A DNA stretch of 64,000 nucleotides from Candidatus Aenigmatarchaeota archaeon. Lineage in GTDB: Archaea; Aenigmatarchaeota; Aenigmatarchaeia; QMZP01; QMZT01. The DNA is taken from assembly GCA_041489155.1 (NCBI GenBank), contig JBGPQP010000001.1:32001-96000 (forward strand). Reading direction: 5' to 3'. Positions within the stretch are counted from its first letter, which is position 1; each line of letters begins with the position of its first letter. Both the position numbers and the translations under genes were made by a program. Shown piece by piece: positions 8,030 through 50,729 of the stretch. The notes below the pieces were generated by a model. That model did no database searches. It was not told the origin of the DNA and worked only from the letters and a program-made list of their open reading frames with translations.

Positions 8030-8863
8030 TCATGCCTCGGAAAAGAAATACCTAAGCGCTTCCTGTATATCCTTGACTTCGATGACGTCTATTCCCACCT
8101 CTTCCGATATGTTGACTTTTTGGGGGACTTTCTCGTTGGTGCATATCTGGGCAGGACCTATCTGCTCGCAATATTTTCTTGTCTCGTACGTGATTTCCTG
8201 CGACTGCATAAGGGGGACAAGAAGCAGGCGCGCTCCGGCGTCTTTCGCTGCCTTTGCCTTTTCAAGCACCTGGCCGACCGGTCCTATCGTGCCGTCGTGG
8301 TTGATGGCGCCGGTTATGAAAACACGCTGGTCTATGTTCTTTTTCCATATTGCAGCGATGGTAGCGATGGTCAAAGCCGTCCCTGCTGACGGGCCTTCGA
8401 CCGAGGTGGCGTTTGTGGTAATCGTATATATCATGTCATAATTGGACATGTTCACGCCTGTTATGTTCGAAGCAACCTTGCTCGAGGTGCGGATAGAGTT
8501 CTGGGTATCGGTCCAGAAAAGCAGCTTGTCTATGTTCGCGAGGACCCTGCCGTCGCCTGGAACTATCTGGACTGTGATAACAGTCGTCAGGCCGTTGCCT
8601 TCCTCGTCCACCGCTGGTATTACTATGGATGTGTACGAAACGTTCGCAAAAGAGCCCTGGACAGGGTTGTAGGGGACGTAGTTGACGATATTGATTGGCC
8701 TTGTTTCATTGCGATATATGATGACCGTTTCGTTCATGTTGCCCATGTAATAACCAATCAGAAACACAAGCGTAACAGAAATCAGGGCGGCCAAAAACCT
8801 GATTGTTTTTTTCTTTCCGGTCGGTTTGCTGTGAACCGTTCTTCTGTAGGCGTACATTGGCAC
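8030..8863 (-). CDS. Membrane-anchored Lon-like (S16) serine protease, no ATPase domain
   Basis: N-terminal TM helix; VEGPSAG (Ser) and GTIGPVGQVLEKAKAA (Lys) dyad motifs. Confidence 0.88.
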   Translation of the reverse strand: MPMYAYRRTVHSKPTGKKKTIRFLAALISVTLVFLIGYYMGNMNETVIIYRNETRPINIVNYVPYNPVQGSFANVSYTSIVIPAVDEEGNGLTTVITVQIVPGDGRVLANIDKLLFWTDTQNSIRTSSKVASNITGVNMSNYDMIYTITTNATSVEGPSAGTALTIATIAAIWKKNIDQRVFITGAINHDGTIGPVGQVLEKAKAAKDAGARLLLVPLMQSQEITYETRKYCEQIGPAQICTNEKVPQKVNISEEVGIDVIEVKDIQEALRYFFSEA

Positions 8864-8911
8864 AACCCCGATGCTAGCATGATTTCTATCTTTTTCATTC
8901 GCTGTTAAACA

Positions 8912-8919
8912 ATTTAAAT
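8912..8919 (+). promoter_or_regulatory. TATA box, probably for the SRP RNA gene
   Basis: TTTAAATA about 22-30 nt upstream of the GC-rich structured RNA starting at about 8941. Confidence 0.5.
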
Positions 8920-8940
8920 ATTGACTGTTGGATTATTAAT

Positions 8941-9255
8941 GCAGGGGGCCTCCAACTGCGGGGCTAGGCCTACCGCACCTTCGGGTGGCAAACGGTCTTC
9001 ATGGCCGGTTGTAGTTTACGGGTGGCTTTGCGAGGACTGCAAGCCCAGTCCTGCCAACTGAGAAGCCTTGTCCTGCAGGATCATCTTCATAGTGAACCGG
9101 GTCAGGGTCGGAAAGTTTCGCACGTTCCGCGTGCGTGCCCCGAAAGACAGCAGCCCTAAACCGTGTTGGTGGTGCTTGCAGGGTTACAGGGTGGAGAAGG
9201 CGGACCGGATAACTTCCAGCTTTTCGTAAAAGTCTAACGTTAACACGCCTCCTGC
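8941..9255 (+). ncRNA. ffs: Archaeal signal recognition particle (7S) RNA with a 32-nt insertion/putative intron at 9114-9145
   Basis: GGGCTAGGCC 5' motif; helix 5 pairing (GTGGCTTTGC/GCAGGGTTAC, TGCCAAC/GTTGGTG); SRP54-binding helix 8 motif GAACCGGGTCAGG...AGCAGCCCTAA; terminal stem 8941-8949/9247-9255 followed by a T-rich tract. Core about 8956-9219. Confidence 0.9.
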
Positions 9256-9323
9256 TCTTTGTTATATTTCCGTAAACAAGCAGCAATTCTCGGATTTTTT
9301 ATAGGCGATGACAATATTTTAAT

Positions 9324-10202
9324 ATGCCTTCCTTTTACAGAAAATTGTCCCTCGTTCTTTTCGGGGGTCTGGTTGAGAAGAACATCGCTTCGTTCAAGCC
9401 GCTGGAGCTGCATATAAGAAATGCCAACATGAAAATCCTTCTGAAAACATGGATAAGCATGCTGTTTATGTCGACGTTCATTTCTTTCTTCGTTTCATTC
9501 ATTCTGATTTACGTGCTCCTGAGCTACATCGTCCAAGTGGAATTCTACATATACATATTCTGCATTATATTTTTCCCGGTCTTCGTTGCATCACTGGTTT
9601 TCATATTTTTTTACCTGTATCCGGTCGAAAAGGAGAGGTCAAGGCAACGTTCAATAGAAAATAACATGCCCTTTGCCATCACGCATATGGCGGCTATTGC
9701 CTCATCTGGAATACCAACCGAATTCATGTTTGAGTTATTGACTGGCTTCAAGGAGTACGGGGAGATATCACAGGATTCGAAGCTCATAATGAGGAACATA
9801 AAAACATTCGGCATGAGTTCGATCGATGCCTTGAAGGACATCGCCGATAGAACGCCTTCCCAGAGCTTCAGGGAGCTTCTGCTGGGCATAGTCTCAACTA
9901 CAGAGTCAGGAGGGGACATGGTGGAATACCTGCATGAGATGTCCGAGAGGGCCTTGTTTGACTACAGGATAAAAAGAGAGAGGTATATGAAAACGCTTTC
10001 CACATATGCAGACATATACACCGCGCTTCTTGTAGCCGCGCCTCTGATGATGCTCTCAATGCTTGCGACCATGAGCATAATAGGGGGAAGCGTGATGGGG
10101 CTTACGATAGATGAGATGATAATGCTGATTACATGGGTCATGCTGCCGTTCCTCAATGTAGCTTTCATTGTATTCATTCATATCACATATCCCGGTGTGT
10201 AA
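9324..10202 (+). CDS. Type II secretion system F domain / TadC-like pilus platform membrane protein
   Basis: IENNMPFAITHMAAIASSG, YGEIS, RTPSQSFRELLLGIVSTTESGG; multiple TMs. Confidence 0.9.
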   Translation: MPSFYRKLSLVLFGGLVEKNIASFKPLELHIRNANMKILLKTWISMLFMSTFISFFVSFILIYVLLSYIVQVEFYIYIFCIIFFPVFVASLVFIFFYLYPVEKERSRQRSIENNMPFAITHMAAIASSGIPTEFMFELLTGFKEYGEISQDSKLIMRNIKTFGMSSIDALKDIADRTPSQSFRELLLGIVSTTESGGDMVEYLHEMSERALFDYRIKRERYMKTLSTYADIYTALLVAAPLMMLSMLATMSIIGGSVMGLTIDEMIMLITWVMLPFLNVAFIVFIHITYPGV

Positions 10203-20455: not shown

Positions 20456-20569
20456 CGGACCTGGGGGGATTCGAACCCCCGACCTTTAGCTTAGGAGGCT
20501 ACCGCTCTATTGTCGACCGAAGCAGACTATGTCTGCTTACTACGAAGTTTCCAACTGAGCTACAGGTCC
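20456..20569 (-). tRNA. tRNA-Arg(CCU) with a 40-nt non-canonical D-loop intron (20510-20549)
   Basis: Acceptor GGACCTG/CAGGTCC, D-stem GCTC/GAGC, anticodon loop CT-CCT-AA, T arm GGGGG-TTCGAAT-CCCCC; BHB GTTG/CGAC with GAA and AAT bulges. Confidence 0.93.
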
Positions 20570-26938: not shown

Positions 26939-27349
26939 ATGAAGTTCAAGTTTGTTAGCGATCTGACTTCGGACGTTGTTTTCGAGGCGTACGGGAAGGA
27001 TCTGAAGGAAGTTTTTGAAAACGCAGCCATCGCTCTATTCAGCGTGATATGCGATATCAAGAAAGTGAACCCTCTCATGAGAAAGGATGCCGAAGTCCAA
27101 GGCAAAGATGCCAAAGATCTTATGTTCAACTGGCTCCAGACCCTGATAAGCATGGTCGACATCGAGTGTGCCTTTTTCTCAAAATTCGAAATAAAAAAAA
27201 TATCCGAAAAACATTTGAAGGCACAGGTCTATGGTGAGGATGCCGAACCGAAAAAGGGCCTTACTGTCGTGAAGGCCGTGACCTATTACAAGTTCAACTT
27301 GGAAGAAACAAAAAGCGGGTACAAGGTAACAGTGGCGCTGGATATATAG
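26939..27349 (+). CDS. Archease (RtcB cofactor)
   Basis: LTSDVVFEAYGKDLKEVFENAA...VKAVTYY...ALDI; adjacent to rtcB. Confidence 0.93.
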   Translation: MKFKFVSDLTSDVVFEAYGKDLKEVFENAAIALFSVICDIKKVNPLMRKDAEVQGKDAKDLMFNWLQTLISMVDIECAFFSKFEIKKISEKHLKAQVYGEDAEPKKGLTVVKAVTYYKFNLEETKSGYKVTVALDI

Positions 27350-27354
27350 CTTGT

Positions 27355-28761
27355 TTATCCTTTGCATACGCCAACAGGCACCGCTCTTGCAACTTTGAGC
27401 GAGATGCCGATGCCGTGCACGCTTTCTATCACGTCGTCGACGTTTTTGTAGGCATCAGGCGCTTCCTCAGCTAAGACCATGGGATGGGTTGACTGCGCAA
27501 TTATGCCCTTCCTAGCAAGGTCTTCCTTGACCTTGCCGCCCCAGAACCTCTTTATGGCATCATTCCTCGACATCGCTCTTCCTGCACCGTGCACGGTCGA
27601 GCCGAACGCCTTTTCCATCGATTTCTCGGTTCCCTTGAGCAGATAGCTTGAAGTGCCCATGGTACCGGCAATAAGCACCGGATCGCCGGGAAAGCTCCTT
27701 GTCGAGCCTTTACGGTGCACATAAACCTTGCGCTTCTTTTCCTCGATCTTGTGCTCCTCAACTTTCACGACGTTATGACAGAGGCCGTAAACCGTATGCA
27801 TATCCATCGCCTCCCAATTCTTATGAAAAACTTTTTCAAACGTCTCGCGAATCCACTGGGTCATCACCAAACGGTTTGTAAAGGAATAATTCACGGCGCA
27901 TTTCATGGCTGAAAAATAATCCAGGCCTTCCGGCGATTTCGCAGGCGCGCAGGCGAGCTGCCTGTCAGGAAGCCATATCTTGTATTTGTCGACCGCTTCC
28001 TCCTGAATTTTTAGGTAATCTGTCGCCACTTGGTGACCAAGACCGCGCGAACCGCAGTGAAGCATTATCAGTACCTGATCCTGATTTCTAATGCCCCATT
28101 TTTTTGCAGTTTCTGCGTCGTAAATATCAGTGACCCTCTGCACTTCAAGGAAATGGTTTCCTGCACCCAGCGTACCGAGCTGCTGAAGGCCACGCTGCCT
28201 TGCAAGAGGCGAAACCTTTTTCGGGTCCCCGCCGTTCATGCATCCCTTCTCTTCCATGTGTTCCTTGTCATCGGCGATGCCATAACCGTTCTCTATTGCC
28301 CAGTTCACGCCGCGCGTCAGGACCTGATCAAGCTGGTCGCTCGTCAGCTTAAGCGTGCCCTTCGCCCCGACGCCACAGGGTATCTTTTTGAAAAGCGATG
28401 ATATGAGCTCGTTTAGCTTTGGTTTCAGTTCGCTGTAAGTCAGATTGGTCCTTATCGAATTGACGCCGCAGTTGATGTCAAAGCCACATAGGCCGGACGA
28501 TATTATGCCGTCCTCGAAATCAAAAGCGCTCACCGCTCCCATCGGCAGGCCGTATCCCCAGTGCATGTCCGGCAGGCCGATAACAGGCTCTATCACGCCG
28601 GGCAGGCAGGCGACATTCGTAAGCTGTTCTACAGCCGCGTTTTCAAGACCATCAATCACCTTTTTGTTGCCTATGATCTTCGCCTTGACGTTCATCCTTG
28701 GTCTAACGTTTTTTTCCAGTTCCCATTCGTAAGGCGAAATCTGCTTCAGTTTTTCTTTCAT
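27355..28761 (-). CDS. rtcB: tRNA-splicing ligase RtcB
   Basis: LPDMHWGYG, GFDINCG, GTLGAGNHFLE, HCGSRGLGH, HN, HRKG, STVHGAGR, EEAPDAYK. Confidence 0.97.
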   Translation of the reverse strand: MKEKLKQISPYEWELEKNVRPRMNVKAKIIGNKKVIDGLENAAVEQLTNVACLPGVIEPVIGLPDMHWGYGLPMGAVSAFDFEDGIISSGLCGFDINCGVNSIRTNLTYSELKPKLNELISSLFKKIPCGVGAKGTLKLTSDQLDQVLTRGVNWAIENGYGIADDKEHMEEKGCMNGGDPKKVSPLARQRGLQQLGTLGAGNHFLEVQRVTDIYDAETAKKWGIRNQDQVLIMLHCGSRGLGHQVATDYLKIQEEAVDKYKIWLPDRQLACAPAKSPEGLDYFSAMKCAVNYSFTNRLVMTQWIRETFEKVFHKNWEAMDMHTVYGLCHNVVKVEEHKIEEKKRKVYVHRKGSTRSFPGDPVLIAGTMGTSSYLLKGTEKSMEKAFGSTVHGAGRAMSRNDAIKRFWGGKVKEDLARKGIIAQSTHPMVLAEEAPDAYKNVDDVIESVHGIGISLKVARAVPVGVCKG

Positions 28762-31929: not shown

Positions 31930-32874
31930 ATGACAAAGGATGATATTGAGAGTCTGCCAGGTGTGGGCGAAAAAACTCTTGAAAAATTCATAGAAGCTGG
32001 TTATGATAACCTGATGGGCATAGCCGCTGCTTCTGCGGGCGAGCTTGTGGCCGCGACCGGAATAGGCGTGGACACTGCAAATAAGATAATAACTGCCGCG
32101 CGGCAAAGGATGAAAATGGGGTTTGAGACAGCGAAGGACGTTATGAAGAAGCGAGAGAAGGTAGGGAGGATAACCACGTGTTCGAAGTCTCTTGACACGC
32201 TTCTTGGTGGCGGCATCGAAACCCAGGCCATAACAGAAATGTACGGTGCTTTTGGTTCCGGTAAATCGCAACTTGCGCACCAGCTTTCCGTTTCGGTCCA
32301 GCTTCCGAAGGAAAAGGGTGGTTTGGGGGGAAAGGCGATATTCATAGACACGGAGCAAACCTTCAGGCCGGAAAGGGTGAAGCAGATGGCAGATGGGCTT
32401 GGTTTGGATCCGGAGAAAACCATGGAAAACATATTCGTCGCCAGAGCTTACAACTCTGACCACCAGGTCATTCTTTTGGACAGCGCAGAAGATATAATAA
32501 AGAAGGAGGGCAGCATAAAACTGATAGTAATCGACTCCCTTACATCATCCTTCAGATCAGAATACGCTGGGAGAGGAACGCTCGCGGACCGCCAGCAAAA
32601 GCTTAACAGGCACCTCCACCAGCTTCAAAAACTTGCAGACGTTTACAATCTGGCAGTTTACGTTACAAACCAAGTGATGTCTAGGCCGGACGTGCTTTTT
32701 GGAGACCCGACTGCTCCAATTGGAGGCCACATCGTGGGTCATCAGGCAACGTATAGGGTATACCTGCGAAAGTCGAAAGAAGACAAGAGGATAGCGAAAT
32801 TGATAGATTCCCCGAACCTCCCGGAAGGTGAGACCGTGTTCAGAGTGTTGCTCGAAGGAGTGAGAGATATTTAA
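31930..32874 (+). CDS. radA: DNA repair and recombination protein RadA
   Basis: Hh[44 protein letters not shown]; no intein. Confidence 0.98.
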
Positions 32875-50599: not shown

Positions 50600-50729
50600 G
50601 GGCTCGTAGCTCAGCTGGTTAGAGCGCCGGTCTTATAAGACCGTCAGGCGTCATGCCTGATAGCTTTGAACCGACAATCATCGGTTATAGGAAAGCCGGA
50701 GGCCAGGGGTTCGAATCCCCTCGAGCCCA
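50600..50729 (+). tRNA. tRNA-Ile(UAU) with a 56-nt canonical 37/38 intron (50638-50693)
   Basis: Acceptor GGGCTCG/CGAGCCC+A, D arm GCTC..GAGC, anticodon stem CCGGT/GCCGG, loop CT-TAT-A|A, T arm AGGGG-TTCGAAT-CCCCT; BHB CTTA/TAGG. Confidence 0.92.

Follow-up and report, generated by a model that had tools for sequence, protein, structure and literature searches.

A predicted bulge-helix-bulge intron in the helix 8 loop of the SRP RNA gene of a member of the Aenigmatarchaeota

Introduction

SRP RNA is universal and essential. The closest described case in which its helix 8 is formed by processing at a bulge-helix-bulge (BHB) motif is that of Thermoproteus tenax and T. uzoniensis, which have a circularly permuted SRP RNA (Plagens et al. 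2015, eLife, PMC4731332); a 'simple intron' ancestor was postulated there for the permuted gene. BHB introns also occur in archaeal rRNA and in cbf5 pre-mRNA, and non-canonical motifs are reported to be cut only by EndA enzymes of the (alpha-beta)2 and epsilon2 types (PMC5829648). The structure 4FZ2 represents the three-unit epsilon2 EndA of ARMAN-2, for which it is reported that K161 in the loop GTYKVSEH confers broad specificity and cleavage of relaxed BHB motifs, and that the catalytic triad consists of Y236, H251 and K282 (PMC3488258). Regarding the architecture of the archaeal particle, a 2010 review describes helix 6 and SRP19 in all archaeal groups (PMC2905702). A full-text literature search, which had most subscription journals outside its reach, found no published internal intron of an SRP RNA, the Thermoproteus article being the one pertinent work among otherwise unrelated ones.

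Here the SRP RNA gene of a member of the Aenigmatarchaeota is described, which lies in a stretch of 64,000 nucleotides (positions 32,001 to 96,000 of contig JBGPQP010000001.1, assembly GCA_041489155.1; in the following, the window). An earlier note, made from the letters of the window alone, had proposed an intron in helix 8 of this gene, and on re-reading the letters of positions 9100-9155 were exactly as given there. The bases 9114-9145 are very probably a tRNA-type BHB intron, spliced by EndA and by RtcB with archease.

The SRP RNA gene and its genomic context

The gene, which specifies a precursor of 313 nt, was delimited by a cmscan match to Archaea_SRP (RF01857), in which positions 1-317 of the model are covered by positions 8942-9254 of the forward strand (Infernal, 80.3 bits, E 1.9e-18). 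The match is full-length and collinear; the Alu domain and helix 5 were matched, and the CAGG and AGCA loops, i.e. the SRP54-binding loops of helix 8, were aligned to the model. A 33-nt insertion was placed by the Infernal alignment at a single unshown loop position of helix 8. No SRP RNA match other than that at 8942-9254 was obtained in the genome (1.13 Mb, about 90% complete). The gene is flanked by protein-coding frames at 8030-8863 (reverse strand) and 9324-10202 (forward strand). A TATA-box-like TTTAAATA was read from the forward strand at 8913..8920, some 25 nt ahead of the start of the RNA, and is a putative promoter; this spacing is the one expected of archaeal promoters.

The score of 80.3 bits is lower than the gathering threshold of RF01857 (96.5 bits), so that the gene is left unreported by a default Rfam scan. 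The intron-less members of the same genus, which are the natural comparison for the cost of the intron in terms of score, yielded 100.9-108.0 bits. Within the order, 10 of the 25 insert-bearing genes were below the gathering score, as against 6 of the 58 others. The shortfall under 96.5 bits matches the penalty for the intron plus the order-wide lack of helix 6. These scores and counts bear out the expectation of the earlier note that SRP genes with such inserts would be missed or mis-scored by standard models, and it follows for annotation that SRP RNA can be wrongly called missing in DPANN genomes.

The BHB motif and the predicted splice sites

At the point at which a GGAA tetraloop should close helix 8, the sequence contains 32 additional bases (9114-9145), as had been claimed and in line with the Infernal alignment. 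Under the BHB rule, exon 1 (8942..9113) ends with the GGAA of the future tetraloop, the BHB-type intron of 32 nt (9114..9145) is delimited in agreement with the Infernal insertion and the alignment of the relatives, and exon 2 (9146..9254) opens with GAC, the 3' half of the apical stem, all on the forward strand. The end of exon 1 agrees with the intron-less congeners and with the joint in the RNA contig treated below. The register originally suggested for a relaxed BHB held: the 5' strand of the central helix, UCGG (9108..9111), forms four of four pairs with the 3' strand CCGA (9140..9143), and the two 3-nt bulges, AAA (9112..9114, predicted cut after 9113) and AAG (9144..9146, predicted cut after 9145), are situated one on either strand, 3' of the respective half of the 4-bp central helix. 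UCGG lies in the exon, where it straddles the border between apical stem and tetraloop with two bases on either side; CCGA belongs to the intron. An inner hairpin of the intron (CGCACG/CGUGCG with a 5-nt loop, 9119..9135, same strand as the elements above) appears in both the MFE and the centroid structure. Taking out 9114-9145 produces, as the earlier note had it, a stem-GGAA-stem apex of the kind that the intron-less congeners encode directly, the predicted ligated apex being a 3-bp stem with GGAA (GUC-GGAA-GAC).

The helices that flank the motif are imperfect. In the outer helix one of the first four positions is paired, the very first being G.A; in the inner helix four of the first six positions are paired, with an interruption ahead of the 6-bp hairpin. 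The strict hBHBh' form is thus not seen at 9114-9145, and the motif is a relaxed BHB. Folding of 9094-9161 resulted in a z-score of -0.39, which is no better than shuffles; the MFE structure, which retains the mature stem, and the centroid structure, which is the BHB form, both have -19.8 kcal/mol. Since single-sequence folding is not distinctive, the case rests on comparison and not on folding energy. A short direct repeat, GAAAG, borders the insert on both sides.

Comparison with related genomes

Regarding the same genus, G002, G003 and G004 are without the insert and read stem-GGAA-stem, which equals the predicted spliced apex (helix 8 of G002 is canonical and uninterrupted; Infernal, 100.9 bits), and G001 carries a diverged 32-nt insert at the same place of helix 8. 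A helix-8 insert is also found in three of the four genomes of genus g9 and in one of the three of genus g6. SRP RNA is present in all 40 relatives from the same order, typically with 272-281 nt, several being longer. The survey of the order yielded an SRP RNA match in 83 of 91 genomes, 25 of the 83 having a length of at least 300 nt; all 25 long genes were aligned with 36 of normal length, and the other 22 matches were judged by length alone (270-275 nt, one of them cut short by the end of its contig). Altogether 30 inserts, distributed over about nine alignment sites, were located in the 25 long genes, and the helix-8 loop is occupied in 13 of the 83 genes, of which seven belong to family f1, five to f5 and one to f3.

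Public metagenome contigs were searched with a sequence pattern, which matched 111 stretches; 8 true SRP sites and 4 new distinct helix-8 inserts were among the 80 loci listed. A phylum-wide scan of 371 genomes with such a pattern gave true SRP matches in 8 genomes, all from the order of the window; as this narrow pattern fails to recover 5 of the 13 known cases, the scan informs little about other orders. Five further matches of the phylum scan were rejected because they are not SRP RNA according to cmscan, and two extra pattern matches in the genome of the window (G000) are located outside the SRP locus.

With the site filled in 13 species genomes and empty in close relatives, the insert is more than a matter of chance. 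The presence or absence among relatives is precise and the conserved exon sequence is restored where the insert is left out, which is the behaviour of an intron.

In total, 17 distinct helix-8 inserts of 31-86 nt were compared. When the BHB cutting rule is applied, a perfectly paired 3-bp stem closing GGAA results in all 17. The 5' bulge is AAA or AAU throughout (17 of 17), and both bulges read AAN or AUG. Four base pairs make up the central helix in 12 inserts and three in the other five, where the mismatch is always in the outermost pair (A.A four times, G.A once). G071 and G085 have a different exon stem, and the 3' end of their introns differs in step, UCGG/CCGA being replaced by CAGG/CCUG or CAGG/CUUG with two compensatory positions.

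Among the nine alignable insert-bearing sequences the proposed structure is paired in 97.9% of the cells, and the central helix in 100%. Five pairs are changed on both sides, four of these in the inner hairpin (i.e., four of the six hairpin pairs). The observed pairing and covariation were reached by none of 500 shuffles, a count that is not a probability since the aligned sequences are related, and sliding the structure by 1-3 columns reduced the paired cells to 21-61%. Variable inserts at the same site with a covarying BHB, the pattern which the earlier note had suggested looking for among relatives, were accordingly found.

RNA and independent DNA sequences

Words are shared with the region by 24 runs, one of which (X21) is a metatranscriptome. 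Compared with 8900-9300, X21 yielded a single contig of 206 nt at a depth of 4.1, which is located wholly within the RNA gene, covers 8967-9111 and 9144-9203 and skips exactly 32 nt. The joint is reported at 9111/9144 with two ambiguous letters, and is compatible with the predicted 9113|9146. Ten of 205 positions of the contig deviate from the window, so that it represents a relative with 95% identity, whereas the nearest intron-less species representative is 87.8% identical over the region covered by X21; judged by these identities, the organism behind the contig is related far more closely than is any intron-less one known. X21 is represented by an assembled contig, contigs drop minor forms, and RNA libraries can hold DNA; the contig may also derive from an intron-less gene of the 95% relative, and a skip during reverse transcription, favoured by the GAAAG repeats at the borders, is conceivable. 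The stretches before 8967 and after 9203, which the contig leaves uncovered, were not used as evidence, and neither were run shares below 0.2. Neither circular-intron nor unspliced-precursor reads were seen.

The insert is retained in the DNA runs X1, X3 and X4, and the joint occurs in none of the three. X1 is possibly the source run, and X3 is identical to the window. X4 has 7 differences in 382 nt, two of them within the insert, one of which replaces a G.U pair in the inner helix by A-U. The presence of the insert in X3 and X4, which are independent, answers the question of an assembly artefact that the earlier note had raised.

Splicing enzymes and SRP components

A single EndA of 396 aa was found, with two stretches of catalytic type besides an N-terminal domain. 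Its full length is matched by PDB 4fz2 (E 6e-110), and residues K161, Y236, H251 and K282 of the latter are all aligned to identical residues, the loop reading GVYK-QER. The nearest titled relatives are from Candidatus Aenigmatarchaeota (84-88% identity for the four closest), those from Micrarchaeota having about 48% identity. From its sequence, the EndA of this genome is classified as a broad-specificity enzyme of the epsilon2 type. An RtcB RNA ligase is encoded at 27358..28626 on the reverse strand (PF01139, 518.8 bits, profile positions 1-426; uninterrupted frame of 478 aa), and an archease at 26960..27346 on the forward strand (PF01951, 118.5 bits; Pfam coordinates, within an open frame of 162 aa). 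The two genes are neighbours (about 26960-28626) and are separated by some 18 kb from that of the SRP RNA, the vicinity already pointed out in the earlier note. By homology, the host appears equipped with the machinery that a BHB intron calls for, i.e. an epsilon2-type EndA and an RtcB ligase.

SRP54 is present on another contig. Helix 6 with its GNAR loop (40 positions of the model) is deleted in this SRP RNA as well as in the best-scoring relative (184.2 bits), and it is missing from every relative examined. SRP19 (PF01922) was detected in none of 41 genomes of the order and in none of 198 genomes of the phylum with at least 85% completeness, by a search of imperfect sensitivity whose control missed one of four archaeal reference genomes. 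The suggestion that the restored apex is needed for SRP19 clamping therefore did not stand, since helix 6 is absent and SRP19 was detected in none of these genomes of the order and the phylum. In bacterial SRP the tetraloop acts in SRP54-FtsY assembly, and by analogy this is likely to be its role here. The SRP of this group is thus a minimal archaeal one, from a phylum without detectable SRP19 and an order whose SRP RNAs are without helix 6.

tRNA introns in the window

Two intron-bearing tRNA genes are located in the window, in which ARAGORN reported no tRNA despite their presence. The gene for tRNA-Arg(CCU) at 20456..20569 (reverse strand), read from the sequence, has a 38-nt D-loop intron (20511-20548) with a relaxed BHB (UUGG-AAA / UCGA-CAA, four of four central pairs); only its T-arm was flagged, as a tmRNA fragment. 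The likeness to the SRP insert that the earlier note had drawn holds for the D-loop intron with a similar motif, but the purine mismatch is at the second outer position and not at the first. The gene for tRNA-Ile(UAU) at 50600..50729 (forward strand; Rfam tRNA, 62.2 bits) has a 56-nt intron at 37/38 (50638-50693) with the BHB CUUA-UAA / UAGG-AAA and a 4-bp outer helix. The style of A-rich bulges is common to the two tRNA introns and the SRP insert.

Proposed mechanism and alternative explanations

According to the proposed mechanism, the gene would be transcribed as a precursor of 313 nt, in which the 3' end of the insert (CCGA) would pair with the exon bases UCGG, i.e. two from the end of the apical stem and two from the beginning of GGAA. 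The resulting 4-bp helix would be flanked by the AAA and AAG bulges, with the intron hairpin inside and a weak outer helix. The three-unit epsilon2 EndA would then cut after the second base of each bulge, and RtcB, aided by archease, would ligate the exons, so that helix 8 would end in GUC-GGAA-GAC. The action of EndA and RtcB is presumed, and where exactly the cuts fall and what becomes of the intron are likewise predictions. Since the tetraloop would not exist before splicing, mature SRP RNA would depend on the tRNA-splicing machinery. The G.A as first outer pair, the single paired position among the first four outer ones and the mismatch in the outermost central pair of 5 of the 17 inserts count against the motif.

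Such a poor outer helix would also fit an insert that is kept in the mature SRP RNA as a lineage-specific expansion segment of helix 8, and so would the MFE fold, which keeps the GUC/GAC stem and stacks the hairpin onto an internal loop, and the fact that splicing is backed by one contig only. An expansion segment is nevertheless highly unlikely. It would destroy the universal GGAA tetraloop, and the insert is precisely missing in close relatives. The conserved parts of the inserts are the boundaries, of which the 3' one covaries with the exon stem, a feature needless for an expansion; in addition, the RNA contig skips the insert, and relatives have inserts of the same style at about eight further sites in the gene. 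Practically negligible is the explanation of the insert as an artefact of assembly or binning, or of the gene as a decaying one, for which the score below the Rfam gathering threshold might be adduced. The insert is found in the independent DNA runs X3 and X4, in 13 species genomes and in 8 metagenome contigs; moreover, the gene is the only SRP RNA of the genome, its exons are conserved and SRP54 is present.

A different question is whether the insert is removed by EndA and RtcB. Other RNases plus a ligase might do so, or the junction might be a skip of the reverse transcriptase over a hairpin flanked by GAAAG; in favour are the relaxed motif and a junction that has two ambiguous letters and is placed between short direct repeats. 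Both are regarded as very improbable, because the BHB rule leads to the right product in 17 of 17 inserts despite differing sequences and lengths from 31 to 86 nt, the genome has the type of EndA shown to cut relaxed motifs, and the tRNA introns of the window have the same style of motif. A BHB intron removed by the tRNA-splicing enzymes is thus the preferred explanation of 9114-9145.

Inserts at other sites and intron mobility

At the other sites of the gene the best registers have 4-bp central helices and A-rich bulges of 3 nt, and the predicted ligation products match intron-less relatives, e.g. in G035 and G060 (with two introns each), G033, G041, G048, G066, G067, G009 and G031. The register at site F (G024, G034, G037, G075) is less clear; a candidate UAUU-AAA register with a central helix of 3 or 4 bp and a plausible ligation product was noted in G034, G037 and G024. 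The automatic choice of the best BHB often favoured spurious registers at the helix-8 site.

A suggestive similarity exists between some introns of different sites, with z up to 6.3 in global alignment; an example is that of the site-D intron of G009 to the helix-8 intron of G055 (z 6.3, none of 200 shuffles), and the sequence of the apical stem of G009 is that of intron-bearing lineages and not of its congeners; the exon flanks of G009 look as if co-converted. Comparison of introns from different sites with blastn-short gave no match at E <= 0.01. The mobility of the introns is put forward as a hypothesis because the signals in its favour come from global alignment against shuffles and not from blastn-short. 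A joint reading of these observations, which is rather doubtful, is that small mobile BHB introns colonise the SRP RNAs of the order, that the helix-8 intron is the collinear 'simple intron' ancestor of Plagens et al., and that splicing is an obligatory checkpoint of assembly. If this were true, splicing would withhold the tetraloop of an SRP devoid of SRP19 and helix 6 until EndA and RtcB act.

Comparison with known systems

The predicted intron is internal to an SRP RNA and interrupts its most conserved loop, by which co-translational protein targeting would come to depend on the tRNA-splicing machinery. It would also add a further kind to the archaeal RNAs that contain BHB introns, namely tRNA, rRNA and a few mRNAs.

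The introns of archaeal rRNA and of cbf5 are similar in being BHB introns of non-tRNA genes that depend on EndA and RtcB, the host gene being a different one. A further likeness exists with the relaxed-BHB tRNA introns of ARMAN-2 / Micrarchaeota (PMC3488258, PMC5829648): the EndA is of the epsilon2 type with the ASL lysine and the catalytic triad conserved, and relaxed motifs are found outside the anticodon loop, the D-loop intron of tRNA-Arg in the window being of this kind. In contrast to the introns of ARMAN-2, the host RNA is here SRP RNA and not tRNA, and the phylum is Aenigmatarchaeota.

The permuted SRP RNA of Thermoproteus, as described in PMC4731332, shares with the present gene a BHB motif at the same helix tip, the processing of which creates the apical loop of helix 8. 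Unlike in Thermoproteus, the gene is collinear (1-317 of the model) and not permuted, its termini are not at the tip of helix 8, and the predicted product of splicing is linear instead of a circle. The host is a member of the DPANN with an epsilon2 EndA, whereas Thermoproteus is a crenarchaeon with an (alpha-beta)2 enzyme, and the SRP of the former is without helix 6 or SRP19. Provided that it is spliced as predicted, the gene supplies the collinear intermediate, located at the tip of the same helix, which had been postulated for the permuted and circular RNA of Thermoproteus without having been observed.

SRP RNA gene and its inserts

The SRP RNA gene of the window (8942-9254, forward strand) carries its predicted 32-nt BHB intron (9114-9145) at the tetraloop of helix 8. 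An independent DNA run covering this gene (X4), from a 98%-identical strain, differed within the intron by two substitutions, at window positions 9125 and 9137; one falls in the hairpin loop, and the G>A change at 9137 turns a G.U pair of the inner helix into A-U. Outside the helix-8 site, 17 more inserts of 29-44 nt were found at about eight other sites in SRP RNA genes of the order (loci L038, L041, L125-L136, L040, L007, L028, L032 and L036), most of them with a central helix of 4 bp and A-rich 3-nt bulges. Some genomes (G009, G031, G033, G035 and G060) contain two inserts per SRP RNA gene. The longest helix-8 intron, with 86 nt, was that of G031 (L040); this intron holds a UGAUGA (box-C-like) motif. 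A non-GNRA apex of helix 8, e.g., a CUGAC-type loop, was observed at L006, L021, L016, L020, L024, L022, L137, L139 and other loci; none of the relatives with such an apex had a helix-8 intron.

Likeness among introns and the apical stem of G009

When introns from different SRP RNA sites were compared by global alignment (324 pairs tested), likeness was detected at z values of 6.3, 6.1 and 5.5 (0 of 200 shuffles each). The introns concerned were that of L007 at site D, one of the sites outside helix 8, with the helix-8 introns of L128 and L130, as well as the two introns of L041 with each other. A blastn-short search between introns of different sites yielded no match at E <= 0.01. The alignment-based likeness across sites hints at duplication or transposition of SRP RNA introns. 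Genome G009 (L007) combines a helix-8 intron with the apical stem GUC/GAC, as is typical of distant intron-bearing genera; the apical stem of its intron-less congeners G014 and G018 (L005 and L008) is ACC/GGU, and the remainder of the G009 SRP RNA is only 54-58% identical to that of the distant intron-bearing genera. The stem of G009 could reflect transfer of the intron with co-conversion, or it could have been co-adapted to the intron.

tRNA introns and splicing machinery

The gene for tRNA-Arg(CCU) (window 20456-20569, reverse strand) has a 38-nt intron in the D-loop and was matched neither by ARAGORN nor by the Rfam tRNA model, its sole trace being the T-arm, reported as a weak tmRNA fragment. 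The gene for tRNA-Ile(UAU) (window 50600-50729, forward strand), which is interrupted at position 37/38 by an intron of 56 nt, was detected by Rfam and missed by ARAGORN. The gene for the RNA ligase RtcB (window 27358-28626, reverse strand) is uninterrupted, one open frame spanning positions 1-426 of the Pfam profile. The tRNA-splicing endonuclease (EndA) of the window's genome is of the three-unit epsilon2 type (G000:C7, L042:859-2049).

Comparison with known systems

Helix 6 is absent from the SRP RNA of the window, with all 40 model positions deleted where helix 5 joins helix 8 (9085-9100); the same deletion is present in the SRP RNA of the best-scoring relative (184.2 bits). The search with the SRP19 profile (PF01922) found the protein in none of the 41 genomes searched from the order and in none of the 198 searched from the phylum. 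In a 2010 review, all archaeal subgroups are stated to have SRP19, coexisting with helix 6 (PMC2905702). The epsilon2 EndA is widespread: 199 relatives of the enzyme, among them loci L045-L124, were found in genomes recorded under the titles Aenigmatarchaeota, Micrarchaeota and others; according to a 2018 paper, this type was known only in ARMAN-1 and ARMAN-2, plus the homologous epsilon2-type EndAs of the related Mancarchaeum Mia14 (PMC5829648).
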